DNA of 64,000 nucleotides from Escherichia coli (lineage in GTDB: Bacteria; Pseudomonadota; Gammaproteobacteria; Enterobacterales; Enterobacteriaceae): assembly GCF_024502345.1 (NCBI RefSeq), contig NZ_JALDNN010000001.1. One strand, given 5' to 3'. Made by a program: the position numbers and the translations under genes. Below are positions 2,978 through 51,717 of the stretch, in pieces. The notes beneath the pieces were generated by a model. That model saw only the letters and a list, made by a program, of their open reading frames with translations, was not told the origin of the DNA and did not search any database. Position 1 is the first letter of the stretch, and each line of letters opens with the position of its first letter.

Positions 2978-5197
2978 ATGAGCTCTATCTCCCTGATCCA
3001 ACCGGATCGCGACCTGTTCTCCTGGCCGCAGTACTGGGCCGCCTGTTTTGGACCGGCACCGTTTTTGCCGATGTCTCGTGAAGAGATGGATCAACTTGGC
3101 TGGGATAGCTGCGACATCATTTTGGTTACTGGCGACGCGTATGTCGATCACCCAAGCTTCGGGATGGCGATTTGCGGTCGTATGCTGGAAGCGCAGGGCT
3201 TTCGCGTCGGGATCATCGCCCAGCCGGACTGGAGCAGCAAAGACGACTTTATGCGTCTGGGTAAACCGAATCTGTTTTTCGGTGTTACTGCTGGCAACAT
3301 GGATTCGATGATCAACCGTTATACCGCCGATCGCCGTTTACGTCATGACGATGCCTACACGCCGGATAACGTCGCGGGTAAGCGCCCGGATCGCGCCACA
3401 CTGGTTTATACCCAGCGTTGTAAAGAGGCGTGGAAAGATGTACCGGTGATCCTCGGCGGTATTGAGGCTAGTCTGCGCCGTACCGCACATTATGATTACT
3501 GGTCCGATACCGTGCGCCGTTCCGTGCTGGTGGATTCGAAAGCCGACATGCTGATGTTTGGTAACGGTGAGCGTCCGCTGGTGGAGGTGGCGCACCGTCT
3601 GGCGATGGGCGAGCCGATTAGTGAAATCCGCGATGTGCGTAATACCGCGATTATCGTGAAAGAGGCGCTGCCTGGCTGGAGCGGCGTGGATTCCACCCGT
3701 CTTGATACCCCTGGAAAAATCGACCCAATCCCGCATCCGTATGGTGAAGATTTGCCGTGCGCGGATAACAAACCGGTGGCACCGAAAAAGCAGGAAGCCA
3801 AAGCCGTAACCGTGCAGCCACCGCGCCCGAAACCGTGGGAAAAAACCTACGTGTTGCTGCCTTCTTTCGAGAAAGTGAAGGGCGATAAAGTGCTGTACGC
3901 CCATGCTTCGCGTATTCTGCACCACGAAACCAACCCAGGCTGTGCCCGCGCATTGATGCAAAAACACGGCGACCGCTATGTGTGGATCAACCCGCCTGCT
4001 ATTCCGCTTTCTACCGAAGAGATGGACAGCGTTTTTGCGCTGCCATACAAGCGCGTGCCACATCCGGCCTATGGCAATGCCCGTATTCCGGCTTACGAAA
4101 TGATCCGTTTTTCGGTCAACATTATGCGTGGCTGCTTTGGCGGCTGCTCTTTCTGTTCTATCACCGAGCACGAAGGGCGCATTATTCAGAGCCGTTCCGA
4201 AGATTCGATCATTAATGAGATCGAAGCGATCCGCGACACCGTTCCAGGTTTTACGGGCGTAATTTCCGATCTCGGTGGGCCAACTGCCAACATGTATATG
4301 TTGCGCTGCAAATCGCCACGCGCTGAACAAACTTGTCGCCGTTTGTCGTGCGTTTATCCGGATATTTGTCCGCACATGGACACTAACCACGAACCGACGA
4401 TCAACCTCTATCGCCGTGCGCGTGATCTGAAAGGCATTAAAAAAATCCTCATCGCCTCAGGCGTACGTTATGACATCGCCGTGGAAGATCCGCGCTATAT
4501 CAAAGAGTTGGCGACCCATCACGTCGGCGGTTATCTGAAGATTGCTCCGGAACATACCGAAGAAGGGCCGTTGTCGAAGATGATGAAGCCGGGCATGGGC
4601 AGCTATGACCGCTTTAAAGAGCTATTCGATACCTACTCGAAACAGGCAGGTAAAGAGCAGTATCTGATCCCGTATTTCATCTCTGCGCACCCCGGTACGC
4701 GTGATGAAGATATGGTGAATTTGGCGCTGTGGCTGAAAAAGCATCGTTTCCGTCTCGACCAGGTACAGAACTTCTACCCATCGCCGCTGGCGAACTCAAC
4801 CACCATGTATTACACCGGGAAAAACCCGCTGGCGAAGATTGGTTATAAGAGCGAAGACGTCTTCGTACCGAAGGGCGACAAGCAGCGTCGTTTGCATAAA
4901 GCGTTGTTGCGTTACCACGATCCGGCAAACTGGCCGTTAATCCGCCAGGCGCTGGAAGCGATGGGTAAAAAGCATCTGATTGGTAGCCGTCGCGATTGCT
5001 TAGTGCCTGCGCCAACCATTGAAGAGATGCGTGAAGCTCGTCGCCAGAACCGCAATACCCGTCCGGCGTTGACGAAACATACGCCGATGGCGACCCAGCG
5101 TCAGACGCCTGCTACGGCAAAAAAAGCGTCGTCTACGCAATCTCGTCCGGTGAATGCTGGTGCGAAGAAACGCCCTAAAGCGGCGGTTGGACGTTAA
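2978..5197 (+). CDS. ygiQ: Radical SAM protein YgiQ (UPF0313)
   Basis: 739-aa ORF with CxxxCxxC motif (CFGGCSFC); matches recalled K-12 YgiQ and gene order. Confidence 0.9.
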
Positions 5198-5239
5198 AAA
5201 AAATCCCCGGCAACTGACATGCTGCCGGGGATTTTTTTA
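5198..5239. terminator. Bidirectional intrinsic terminator between convergent ygiQ and yqhH
   Basis: A-run, GC stem CCCCGGCA...TGCCGGGG, T-run. Confidence 0.6.
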
Positions 5240-5545: not shown

Positions 5546-6472
5546 TCATTGCTTTAATCTGGCGGCGGTTTTTGCCTCAATCTGCTTAAGTAGGCTGCCG
5601 CTGTTCGGGCGGATAAAATCAGCGATTTCCCACTTACCTTCGCGCCGCTGTAAAACCAGCTCTTGCTCTTCGTTGTTGCCATTGGTCAGCGTAAAACGAA
5701 CATGAATGCGGGCGGAATCGGCGGTTTTCTCCAGGACTCGAATTTCATCAACGCGTGAAAATAGCGACTCTTCGCCAAAACAGATCGGATTGTCGTAAAT
5801 AAATTGCCGTTCTATTTGCATATCTTCATCGGGATTGTTGGCCGCCTTGAAGGTGGTTTTATAGAAGGCATTGACCGCCTGGCGGTAAGAGTCGGAAACC
5901 ACCCACGTCCACGGCCAGCTATAATCGGCAATATGTTCAAAGAGTTCGGCAACAAAGGCTTCCGGCTGTTCTTTTTGCAACGAAGCTAAAGCGGCCAGCG
6001 TTTTTTCATTCTCGCTATTAACTGCTTGTAAGACGCTGCCATGATTGCTGACAATATCGTCAATGACCCAACGACCATTTTCCGCCACCATTTTCAGTGT
6101 CTGCGTGGTCTTTTCTTTATCATCTTTAAAGATACGAAAGCGCACAACGGCATCGGCATGATCGGCGTCAGTTTGAGTTATCGCTACGCTTTCTAGCACC
6201 AGATCGCCAAAATCCTGACAATCACAAACCGGATCATAATCCAGCCAGCCAATATTGCCCGGCAGCGTAAGATTGTCGTTCAGGGTAAGCGCCTGTTGAA
6301 TACGCGCAGAAGTTATCGCCCGCTCTCCGGTTTCACCAAAATAAGGGGCAGTGGCATCTGATTTATAGTTCTTATAAATATGCCGGACTGTTTGTTCTAC
6401 GGTCTGTGAGGGGGGCTGTGCGTGTACGGTAAAACTTGCCAGGGCTGCTAAAAACAGAAGTATTATTTTCAT
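5546..6472 (-). CDS. yqhG: Periplasmic protein YqhG (DUF3828-like)
   Basis: 308-aa ORF with N-terminal signal peptide; synteny. Confidence 0.8.
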   Translation of the reverse strand: MKIILLFLAALASFTVHAQPPSQTVEQTVRHIYKNYKSDATAPYFGETGERAITSARIQQALTLNDNLTLPGNIGWLDYDPVCDCQDFGDLVLESVAITQTDADHADAVVRFRIFKDDKEKTTQTLKMVAENGRWVIDDIVSNHGSVLQAVNSENEKTLAALASLQKEQPEAFVAELFEHIADYSWPWTWVVSDSYRQAVNAFYKTTFKAANNPDEDMQIERQFIYDNPICFGEESLFSRVDEIRVLEKTADSARIHVRFTLTNGNNEEQELVLQRREGKWEIADFIRPNSGSLLKQIEAKTAARLKQ

Positions 6473-13510: not shown

Positions 13511-13543
13511 TCGCCACATCAGGTAAGAGTGAATTCACAATGA

Positions 13544-13578
13544 TGCCCGGTTGCTTTTCACAACCGGGCATTTTTTTA
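13544..13578. terminator. Intrinsic terminator (stem GCCCGGTTG...CAACCGGGC then T7) shared by exbD and convergent yghA
   Basis: Hairpin plus T-run read directly. Confidence 0.6.
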
Positions 13579-47508: not shown

Positions 47509-49680
47509 ATGAGTCAAACCATAACCCAGGGCCGTTTACGCATTGACGCCAATTTTAAACGTTTTGTGGATGAAGAAGTTTTACCGGGAACAGGGCTGGA
47601 CGCTGCGGCGTTCTGGCGCAATTTTGATGAAATCGTTCACGATCTGGCACCAGAAAATCGTCAGTTGCTGGCAGAACGCGATCGCATTCAGGCGGCGCTT
47701 GATGAGTGGCATCGCAGCAATCCGGGGCCGGTAAAAGATAAAGCGGCCTATAAATCTTTCCTGCGTGAACTGGGCTACCTGGTGCCGCAACCGGAGCGCG
47801 TGACGGTGGAAACCACGGGCATTGACAGCGAAATCACCAGTCAGGCGGGGCCACAGCTGGTGGTTCCGGCAATGAACGCCCGCTACGCGCTGAACGCGGC
47901 GAACGCTCGCTGGGGCTCACTGTACGATGCGTTATACGGCAGCGACATCATCCCGCAGGAAGGGGCGATGGTCAGCGGCTACGATCCGCAACGCGGTGAG
48001 CAGGTTATCGCCTGGGTTCGGCGTTTCCTCGATGAATCTCTACCGCTGGAAAACGGCAGCTATCAGGATGTGGTGGCGTTTAAGGTGGTCGATAAACAAT
48101 TACGCATCCAGTTGAAAAATGGTAAAGAAACCACGTTACGTACCCCGGCGCAGTTTGTCGGTTACCGTGGCGATGCCGCTGCGCCGACCTGCATTTTGCT
48201 GAAAAATAACGGCCTGCATATTGAACTGCAAATTGATGCCAACGGGCGGATTGGCAAAGACGATCCGGCGCACATCAACGATGTTATCGTCGAAGCGGCC
48301 ATCAGTACCATTCTCGACTGCGAAGATTCGGTCGCGGCGGTTGATGCGGAAGATAAAATCCTGCTGTACCGCAATCTGCTGGGCCTGATGCAGGGGACTC
48401 TGCAAGAGAAAATGGAGAAAAACGGTCGACAAATCGTGCGTAAACTGAATGACGATCGTCATTACACCGCCGCCGATGGCTCTGAAATTTCTCTGCACGG
48501 ACGCTCGCTGCTGTTTATCCGCAACGTGGGTCATTTGATGACCATTCCTGTGATTTGGGACAGCGAAGGCAATGAAATCCCGGAAGGCATTCTTGATGGC
48601 GTCATGACTGGCGCGATTGCCCTCTATGATTTAAAAGTGCAGAAAAACTCGCGCACTGGCAGCGTCTATATTGTGAAACCGAAAATGCACGGTCCGCAGG
48701 AAGTGGCGTTCGCCAACAAACTGTTTACCCGCATTGAGACAATGCTCGGTATGGCACCGAATACCCTGAAAATGGGCATTATGGATGAAGAACGTCGGAC
48801 CTCGCTGAACTTGCGTAGCTGTATCGCTCAGGCGCGCAACCGCGTGGCGTTCATCAATACCGGTTTCCTCGACCGTACCGGCGATGAAATGCATTCGGTG
48901 ATGGAAGCTGGCCCGATGCTGCGTAAAAATCAGATGAAATCGACGCCGTGGATCAAAGCCTACGAGCGTAATAACGTGCTTTCCGGCCTGTTCTGTGGGC
49001 TGCGCGGTAAAGCGCAAATCGGTAAAGGCATGTGGGCAATGCCGGACCTGATGGCAGACATGTACAGCCAGAAGGGCGACCAACTGCGTGCCGGGGCAAA
49101 CACAGCCTGGGTTCCGTCACCAACCGCTGCTACGCTCCATGCGCTGCACTACCACCAAACCAACGTACAGAGCGTGCAAGCCAACATTGCCCAGACCGAG
49201 TTTAATGCTGAATTTGAACCGCTGCTGGACGATCTGCTGACTATTCCGGTTGCTGAAAACGCTAACTGGTCGGCGCAAGAGATCCAACAAGAGCTGGATA
49301 ACAACGTGCAGGGGATTCTGGGGTACGTGGTGCGCTGGGTGGAGCAGGGGATTGGTTGTTCAAAAGTGCCGGATATTCACAATGTGGCGCTGATGGAAGA
49401 CCGCGCAACGCTGCGTATCTCCAGCCAGCATATCGCCAACTGGTTACGTCACGGTATTCTGACCAAAGAACAGGTGCAGGCGTCGCTGGAGAATATGGCG
49501 AAAGTGGTTGATCAGCAAAACGCTGGCGATCCGGCTTATCGTCCGATGGCGGGGAATTTCGCTAACTCGTGTGCTTTTAAAGCTGCCAGCGATTTGATCT
49601 TCCTCGGCGTGAAACAGCCAAACGGTTATACCGAACCGTTATTACACGCCTGGCGTTTACGCGAAAAAGAAAGTCATTAA
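47509..49680 (+). CDS. glcB: Malate synthase G
   Basis: 723-aa [30 protein letters not shown]. Confidence 0.95.
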
Positions 49681-50034
49681 TAGCGTCAAAAAAGCCCCGG
49701 CAAGTTTTATTGTCGGGGCTATGATAGTAACTGCGGTAGTACATTTATCCCGGAAATAACCGGAGCGATTATCAGGGTTTAACAATATTAAATACCCGTA
49801 GCGCATTACTAGCGGGCCTAAAACAACAATATGGACATCTTAACGATACTCTGCGCCTGCGTGTGCGGAACAGAAACCCTTACCCGATATACTTGTTATG
49901 CCAGAGGTAGCAATTGCGTTAGCGGCGTACTGTTGCTGTAAAGTATAACGCCTATATTTTACAGTTCAGTCCTCTTTTGCTTATTACAACCTTAAGTATA
50001 TCAAGCATATAAAGATAATAAGAGACTGAACAAT

Positions 50035-51717
50035 ATGGTTACCTGGACCCAAATGTATATGCCGATGGGAGGACTGGGGCTATCCGCTCTGGTCGCCCTG
50101 ATCCCGATAATATTCTTCTTCGTTGCACTCGCGGTATTACGTCTGAAAGGACATGTCGCTGGAGCAATAACCCTTATATTATCTATCCTGATTGCAATAT
50201 TCGCCTTTAAAATGCCGATTGATATGGCTTTTGCTGCTGCGGGCTATGGCTTTATTTATGGATTATGGCCTATTGCGTGGATTATTGTCGCGGCGGTGTT
50301 CCTCTATAAATTAACCGTTGCCAGCGGTCAGTTCGATATTATCCGCAGCTCGGTTATCTCCATCACCGACGATCAGCGTTTGCAGGTGTTACTGATTGGT
50401 TTCTCCTTTGGTGCGTTGCTGGAAGGAGCGGCTGGCTTTGGTGCGCCGGTGGCGATTACCGGTGCGCTGCTGGTGGGCCTGGGCTTCAAACCGTTATACG
50501 CGGCGGGGCTGTGTCTGATTGCCAACACTGCGCCAGTGGCGTTTGGTGCGTTGGGCGTGCCGATTCTGGTCGCCGGTCAGGTAACGGGAATCGATCCGTT
50601 CCACATTGGCGCAATGGCGGGACGTCAGTTACCGTTCCTGTCGGTTCTTGTGCCGTTCTGGCTGGTAGCAATGATGGACGGCTGGAAAGGGGTGAAAGAG
50701 ACGTGGCCAGCGGCGCTGGTTGCTGGGGGAAGCTTCGCTGTCACTCAGTTCTTTACCTCTAACTATATTGGTCCGGAACTGCCGGATATTACTTCGGCGC
50801 TGGTGAGTATCGTCTCACTCGCTTTATTCCTTAAAGTCTGGCGGCCGAAAAATACCGAAACGGCAATCAGCATGGGGCAATCCGCAGGTGCGATGGTGGT
50901 AAATAAGCCATCTTCTGGCGGTCCCGTGCCTTCAGAATATAGTCTGGGGCAAATCATTCGTGCGTGGTCACCGTTTTTAATCTTAACGGTGCTGGTCACC
51001 ATCTGGACCATGAAGCCGTTTAAAGCGTTATTTGCTCCGGGCGGCGCGTTTTATTCACTGGTGATTAATTTCCAGATCCCTCATTTGCATCAACAAGTGT
51101 TGAAAGCGGCACCCATTGTCGCCCAACCAACGCCAATGGATGCGGTGTTTAAATTCGACCCTCTCTCGGCTGGCGGCACCGCTATTTTTATTGCGGCGAT
51201 TATCTCTATCTTCATCCTCGGCGTGGGCATCAAGAAAGGGATTGGCGTCTTTGCCGAAACGCTAATTAGTCTGAAGTGGCCGATATTGTCGATTGGCATG
51301 GTGCTGGCGTTCGCCTTCGTCACCAACTATTCCGGCATGTCCACCACGCTGGCGCTGGTACTGGCAGGTACAGGCGTGATGTTCCCGTTTTTCTCACCGT
51401 TCCTCGGCTGGCTGGGGGTATTCCTTACCGGCTCGGACACTTCTTCAAACGCCCTGTTTGGTTCACTGCAATCGACCACGGCGCAGCAAATCAATGTCTC
51501 TGACACTCTGCTGGTGGCAGCAAATACCAGCGGCGGCGTAACTGGCAAGATGATCTCCCCGCAATCTATCGCCGTGGCCTGCGCCGCGACGGGCATGGTG
51601 GGCCGAGAATCTGAACTATTCCGCTACACCGTGAAGCACAGTCTGATTTTTGCCAGCGTTATCGGCGTTATCACGTTGTTGCAGGCGTATGTGTTTACTG
51701 GAATGTTGGTCTCGTAA
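50035..51717 (+). CDS. glcA: Glycolate/lactate permease
   Basis: 560-aa polytopic LctP-family ORF. Confidence 0.92.

Follow-up and report, generated by a model that had tools for sequence, protein, structure and literature searches.

Bidirectional terminators, reportedly described by Ju et al. in 2019, are said to lie between convergent transcription units; one palindrome is common to the two converging units. In malEFG, REP elements reportedly serve as intercistronic stabiliser hairpins, a finding attributed to Newbury et al. in 1987. Rfam family RF00117 represents C0719, an E. coli/Shigella candidate small RNA located between glcA/yghK and glcB. C0719 is said to have been proposed as a candidate small RNA by Tjaden et al. 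in 2002 on the basis of an oligonucleotide-array survey, so that its annotated ends are approximate. A further class consists of stable stem-loops without a U-tract; in E. coli they mark steady-state 3' ends produced by exonuclease trimming, in which the RNA is shortened to the stem-loop by PNPase and RNase II after diffuse termination downstream (Dar & Sorek 2018, PMC6061677).

The stretch of DNA analysed here (the window, 64,000 nt of E. coli sequence) contains the operon described as glcDEFGBA in work citing Nunez et al. 2001 (PMC10272880). Several E. coli chromosomes carry the locus with 100% identity, and K-12 matches it at 99.5%. A stem-loop lies in the 354-nt spacer between glcB and glcA, the last gene of the operon. 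We explain it best, with a probability of roughly 60%, as a strand-asymmetric 3'-end element of dual use, that is, a protective stem-loop or weak terminator for the sense transcript and an intrinsic terminator for an antisense transcript. The features on which this reading draws are as follows, in window coordinates.

47509..49680, plus strand: glcB, coding sequence of malate synthase G (open reading frame list; RefSeq annotation of identical or near-identical E. coli records)
49688..49693, minus strand: U6 tract of the putative minus-strand terminator, an A6 run on the plus strand (sequence)
49693..49720, both strands: palindromic stem-loop (sequence and RNA folding)
49735..49956, minus strand: match to the C0719 small RNA, Rfam RF00117 (cmscan, 299 bits)
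50035..51717, plus strand: glcA, coding sequence of glycolate permease (open reading frame list, RefSeq annotation)

GlcB homologues carry the Pfam domains MS_N, MSG_insertion, MS_TIM-barrel and MS_C. The TAA stop codon of glcB occupies 49678-49680, and the hairpin begins 13 nt past it. The stem arms, AGCCCCGGCAA (49693-49703) and TTGTCGGGGCT (49710-49720), enclose a 6-nt loop, GTTTTA (49704-49709), and the plus-strand sequence 3' of the stem, ATGATAGTAACTG, has no T-run. In the plus-strand RNA, the stem comprises 11 bp including one G.U pair, with a folding energy of -20.1 kcal/mol (z = -5.97), and none of 200 shuffles was as stable. In the minus-strand RNA, the G.U position becomes a C.A mismatch, which leaves a stem of 7 bp plus 3 bp. 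This hairpin has an energy of -14.7 kcal/mol (z = -3.93; 0/200 shuffles as stable), five G-C pairs at its base and UUUUUU directly after it. A TransTermHP-style scoring of the tails gave -4.6 to -5.05 for the minus strand, within the top 0.3% of window 15-mers, and -2.15 for the plus-strand tail AUGAUAGUAACUG, at the 36th percentile of window 15-mers. The minus strand thus presents both the GC-rich stem-loop and the adjacent U-rich tract of an intrinsic terminator, and the plus strand has no U-rich tail in any of the eight alleles compared. In the sense direction, the element is not an intrinsic terminator.

These results bear out most of what an earlier note on this DNA had read from its letters. 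The A6 run does precede the stem, no T-run follows it on the plus strand, and the anatomy of a minus-strand terminator is present, here as a stem with U6-7; the stem itself exists but is longer than the note had given it, reaching 11 bp on the plus strand. The minus-strand hairpin shares with canonical Rho-independent terminators the GC-rich stem, the 6-nt loop and the adjacent U6-7 tract. In the common E. coli allele, it departs from them by the C.A mismatch within its stem and by an energy limited to -14.7 kcal/mol. A generic promoter and terminator consensus scan made no call at the glcB hairpin, because the plus strand is without a T tail and because the minus-strand mismatch splits the stem, so that the apparent loop exceeds the limit of the scan.

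We searched positions 49300-50400 against Rfam, and C0719 was the sole match (299 bits against a gathering score of 50, E = 2e-79, full length 1-222). The 3' boundary of the model lies 14 nt upstream of the hairpin, which falls outside RF00117, and the hairpin with its U-tract is the sole terminator-like structure downstream of C0719. Because the match ends 14 nt before the hairpin, the latter is the obvious and likely terminator of the annotated C0719, located where a C0719 terminator would be expected. When a 306-nt antisense RNA was folded, the minimum-free-energy and centroid structures both contained the terminator hairpin; taken in full, this RNA folds no better than its shuffles (z = -0.77).

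Reports on C0719 itself are scattered. Reads from the C0719 strand were low but detectable in ligation-based small-RNA libraries, rising 3.5-fold in transition and 7.4-fold in stationary phase (PMC4676190). C0719 has been lost in some E. coli/Shigella lineages (PMC3318445), its overexpression gave no biofilm or motility phenotype (PMC4606813), and a transposon insertion at C0719 reduced group II intron retrohoming (PMC3636086). Between glcA and glcB, the present RefSeq record of K-12 MG1655 (NC_000913.3, 3119000-3125000, L001) shows no feature and leaves C0719 unannotated; Rfam still carries it, as do tables derived from EcoCyc (Adams et al. 2021, gene G0-8912).

Our own consensus scan for antisense start signals found one best candidate.

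49995..50003, minus strand: candidate extended -10 element, TGATATACT, for the antisense transcript (own consensus scan)

This element is identical in E. albertii and in contig L092, and the aligned Raoultella position reads TGGTATGCT. An antisense RNA initiated from it would begin near 49988, some 30 nt ahead of the 5' boundary of the Rfam C0719 model. Other -10-like hexamers on the minus strand are TAAAAT (49961-49956) and TATACT (49947-49942), and all candidate antisense promoters have poor -35 elements by the consensus scan.

Published maps of RNA 3' ends in K-12 MG1655 were compared with the window by the conversion x = 49680 + (3121634 - K-12 position), glcB occupying 3121634-3123805 on the '-' strand of that genome. 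Among the Term-seq ends from cells grown in LB to OD600 2.0, Adams et al. (2021, PMC7815308) give one on the '-' strand at 3121590, with 47630 reads; it corresponds to window position 49724 on the plus strand, 4 nt past the stem (...CGGGGCUAUGA). Adams et al. classified this end as 'primary: glcB; antisense: C0719' (PMC7815308, Supplementary file 1), and the sequence printed for it matches window 49674-49734 identically. In the part of the TRS 2023 data consulted (PMC10687069, supplementary file 4), a 3' terminus is given at 3121587-3121594 on the '-' strand, equivalent to window 49720-49727, and is classified as 'alternative primary in TU, glcB' with R = 0.95-1.0, where R is 1 minus the local read-through and a value of 1 means none.

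49720..49727, plus strand: steady-state 3' ends of the glcB-sense RNA, 0-7 nt past the stem (Term-seq and the consulted part of TRS)

The plus-strand hairpin therefore has the properties of a protective stem-loop, being stable at -20.1 kcal/mol, without a U tail and, in the parts of the maps consulted, followed by 3' ends within 0-7 nt of the stem. It resembles the elements of Dar and Sorek in its stability, its lack of a U-tract and its precise 3' end a few nucleotides downstream. It differs from them in having an upstream A-tract, which they usually do not have, and in lying inside an operon, whereas theirs are found at operon ends.

An end of C0719 in the U-tract would map to K-12 3121622-3121627. 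In Adams 2021 (Term-seq in LB at OD 0.4, LB at OD 2.0 and M63) and the part of TRS 2023 consulted, covering five growth conditions, no antisense (C0719-strand) 3' end is given at 3121600-3121699; no RNA end appears there on either strand, and thus none in the minus-strand U-tract in vivo. The earlier note had taken the hairpin to stop minus-strand transcripts heading from the spacer towards glcB and had made this depend on minus-strand 3' ends mapping here, of which the two published K-12 maps yielded none. This absence is weak evidence and carries limited weight, because C0719 is weakly expressed. The note's further idea, an antisense or small RNA ending in the gap, gained a C0719 match on the proper strand but no mapped end. 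Its remark that the hairpin may act bidirectionally fits the data best, although the direct evidence is confined to the sense direction, the very one that it had thought least likely.

We compared the region across genomes. Of 5426 complete E. coli genomes, 4543 have the hairpin region, and the other 883 lack the spacer together with the glcB 3' end and the glcA start. Among 11 diverse E. coli strains, the stem is invariant except in strain 1943, where a G->A change turns the G.U pair into A-U and makes the stem perfect on both strands; the remaining variation consists of an A6/A7 length polymorphism and one loop change. A protein search found close GlcB relatives outside E. coli in E. albertii (96-97%) and two Logan contigs (88-89%), followed by a Raoultella planticola-type GlcB (81%) that also occurs in some Klebsiella and Serratia records. 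The next relatives come from Pseudomonas, at 68-70%, the range being 68-75% for Pseudomonas/Stutzerimonas together. Among the matches listed, close enterobacterial GlcB was seen only in Escherichia and as the sporadic Raoultella-type allele, a patchy distribution that suggests horizontal acquisition of the glc cluster.

In all close-relative loci, glcDEFGB is followed by a spacer of 331-398 nt and then by glcA. C0719 was matched on the minus strand in E. albertii (273 bits), contig L095 (289 bits) and, in diverged form, contig L092 (103 bits), and the Rfam search did not detect it in the Raoultella locus. E. albertii, the enterobacterial contig L092 and Raoultella/Klebsiella all keep the hairpin, the A5-7 run and the absence of a sense T-run, in spacers that have otherwise largely diverged. 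Between E. coli and Raoultella, spacer identity is 46% overall, with three islands of at least 80%, namely the A-run with the 5' arm of the hairpin (49687-49703), the sequence block 49824-49872 and the region of the glcA translation start (49998-50040). The second of these blocks coincides on the minus strand with the unpaired centre of the Rfam C0719 model.

Comparison of eight distinct alleles, from E. coli to Raoultella, showed an A5-A7 run flush against the stem in all eight. Tail scores range from -4.1 to -5.6 on the minus strand and from -1.8 to -2.7 on the plus strand, and the minus-strand hairpin energies of the other alleles lie between -12.7 and -23.8 kcal/mol. The distance from the stop codon to the A-run is 8 nt in E. 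coli and 41 nt in Raoultella. The A-run thus travels with the hairpin, which is hard to explain unless the minus-strand U-tract, or some other use of the A-run, is selected. Among the matches listed, the strongest hairpin downstream of glcB at 72 distant loci is flanked by neither run in 57 cases, by just a T-run in 11 and by just an A-run in 4, the last being an uncommon arrangement. The E. coli locus (L002) is among these four, leaving 3 of 71 outside E. coli.

The stem itself is less informative about strand. Where a transition gives G.U in the RNA of one strand, the RNA of the opposite strand has C.A. The plus-strand RNA is favoured in the E. coli, L092 and Raoultella sp. BIGb0138 alleles; in the E. 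albertii allele, the minus strand folds at -19.4 kcal/mol against -14.9 kcal/mol for the plus strand. Across six sequences, 90.9% of stem cells are paired on the plus strand versus 89.4% on the minus strand, and covariation was not significant, with 59/500 (plus strand) and 173/500 (minus strand) shuffles reaching the observed value. As far as these alignments go, the stem substitutions do not indicate which strand's RNA is under selection.

In the reading that we favour, the hairpin would sit where plus-strand glc transcription meets minus-strand antisense transcription (C0719) from the glcB-glcA spacer. On the sense strand, the stable, U-less stem-loop would set the steady-state 3' end of the glcDEFGB message, most likely by blocking 3'->5' exonucleases after termination or cleavage within the 354-nt spacer, perhaps assisted by weak pausing or termination at the hairpin. 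Within this untranslated spacer, Rho could act or an endonuclease could cut the RNA. An obvious Rho-loading signal, that is, a C-rich and G-poor region, was not seen in it (C/G = 1.05), and Adams et al. called no Rho termination region in glcB or glcA in exponential phase (PMC7815308). The present data fit weak termination and processing alike as the source of the sense end. Since glcA is generally taken to be the last gene of the operon, some transcription must pass the hairpin, and a minority of the RNA would continue into glcA. On the antisense strand, we infer that the palindrome and its U6-7 act as a canonical Rho-independent terminator. Antisense transcripts would then stop roughly 30 nt past the 3' boundary of the Rfam C0719 model, and antisense polymerases would be kept out of glcB.

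It is possible, although we rather doubt it, that the element serves the sense strand alone, as a 3' stabiliser or weak terminator of glcDEFGB that sets the glcB:glcA balance, with the A-run incidental and C0719 noise, from the microarray or from pervasive transcription, that has no dedicated terminator. All direct 3'-end evidence is indeed on the sense strand, and five of the seven wobble-type stem changes keep the plus-strand hairpin. C0719, moreover, is weakly expressed, absent from RefSeq K-12, no more structured than shuffles and without phenotype on overexpression. The glcB hairpin, whichever reading holds, recalls the malEFG REP hairpins, in that a stem-loop placed between cistrons would make the message upstream of it more stable and leave the distal gene at a lower relative level; it differs from them in being single-copy and in its sequence. 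What a purely sense role leaves unexplained is the A5-7 run flush with the stem in every lineage, including Raoultella, whose flanks cannot be aligned, the more so as U-less protective stem-loops are typically without an upstream A-tract (Dar & Sorek, PMC6061677); the E. albertii allele also pairs better on the minus strand. An unlikely alternative is a true bidirectional terminator, in which head-on collisions of RNA polymerases from the glc and C0719 promoters are positioned by the hairpin. It would account for the sharp sense end without a U-tract, the geometry of glcB and C0719 is convergent, and the C0719 reads and the glcB 3' end are both seen in transition or stationary phase. Convergent-gene collisions have been found to need a stem-loop for positioning, with read-through prevented (Wang et al. 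2022, 10.1101/2022.10.23.513370). The glcB palindrome is like those of bidirectional terminators in that one palindrome would be common to converging units, with U-less RNA ends on one side. However, the location between convergent units holds only if C0719 is a real transcript, for which there are the Rfam match and low-level reads; and typical bidirectional terminators have both an A-tract and a U-tract, whereas the glcB hairpin is one-sided, flanked by an A-tract only. No antisense 3' end is mapped, and C0719 looks far too low, compared with the 47630-read glcB peak, to stop most sense polymerases.

We consider it equally improbable that the antisense RNA goes further and creates the glcB 3' end, thereby tuning the glcA permease against the glycolate-oxidising enzymes as an operon-internal 'valve' retained from Escherichia to Raoultella. 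Its parts would be the one-sided terminator, the antisense promoter and the 49824-49872 block, and it would work through collision and/or RNase III cleavage of the duplex. If the antisense RNA did set the glcB:glcA ratio, this would be a tidy case of antisense control inside an operon; nothing found here requires it. Least probable is a chance palindrome, or part of a REP/BIME element, with no specific role. Loose 'hairpin + T5' sites are nearly as common in shuffled sequence (mean 6.65 in 20 dinucleotide shuffles) as in the window (10), and the motif alone proves little. Because the loose motif is common by chance, the case for more than chance rests on conservation and on the published 3'-end mapping. 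A REP/BIME origin was rejected, as the hairpin occurs at a median of 1 place per genome in the 4543 E. coli genomes. The hairpin is single-copy, forms a cross-genus island in a diverged spacer and coincides with the 3' ends of two independent studies, and the 3'-end maps together with the conservation island effectively refute the chance reading.

The hairpin is thus real and conserved, and at the same time an ordinary, largely known feature: public catalogues for E. coli K-12 already list C0719 and the mapped 3' end of glcB, and each part of the element falls into an established class in the most intensively studied bacterium. The analysis makes three modest additions. It proposes the hairpin as the likely terminator of C0719, it traces the conserved one-sided architecture as far as Raoultella, and it notes that published 3'-end maps so far back the role on the sense strand but not that on the antisense strand. 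The candidate small RNA thereby acquires a plausible 3' end some 30 nt past the Rfam boundary, and the sharp end of glcB transcripts inside glcDEFGBA is accounted for despite a U-less hairpin. The locus would be a clean natural example of a one-sided terminator common to converging transcripts and kept across genera. Beyond annotation, its importance is little.

Open reading frames overlapping these elements were also considered. The minus-strand frames 49806..49657 (49 aa) and 49744..49577 (55 aa), which run over the hairpin, were rejected as coding because the A6/A7 polymorphism frameshifts them and their stops lie beyond the terminator. On the plus strand, the block at 49824-49872 includes the start of a 36-codon frame at 49831-49941 (MDILTILCACVC...); Raoultella has a similar sequence over its first 12 codons (MDILISFCAFVC*). 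This frame is probably non-coding, and it is without a Shine-Dalgarno sequence. All five substitutions within E. coli are nonsynonymous, the frame is shifted in L092, and in Raoultella it stops after 12 codons; this substitution pattern argues against coding of the block.

Two strains depart from the usual layout of the locus. In E. albertii CP117620.1 (L091, 5526-5789), glcA is an 87-residue Lactate_perm fragment that follows an intact glcDEFGB and spacer, which suggests that glcA is a pseudogene in this strain. In E. coli strain 6883 (NZ_CP074998.1; L090, 3620-6620), the spacer is cut inside C0719 at approximately window position 49918. A traT fragment, cptA and an IS3 transposase replace the remainder, and glcA is not at that position.

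Other hairpins in the window provide points of reference. At 5198-5238, in contrast to the glcB hairpin, a symmetric bidirectional terminator consists of an A8 run, a GC-rich hairpin (TCCCCGGCA...TGCCGGGGA) and a T7 run, and lies between the convergent open reading frames 2978..5197 (plus strand) and 5546..6472 (minus strand). Compact GC-rich hairpins with T5-T7 were also seen at 13531-13577 (plus strand), 29255-29299 (plus strand) and 57751-57707 (minus strand), with energies of -16 to -19 kcal/mol, and these three are probably ordinary intrinsic terminators of neighbouring genes.
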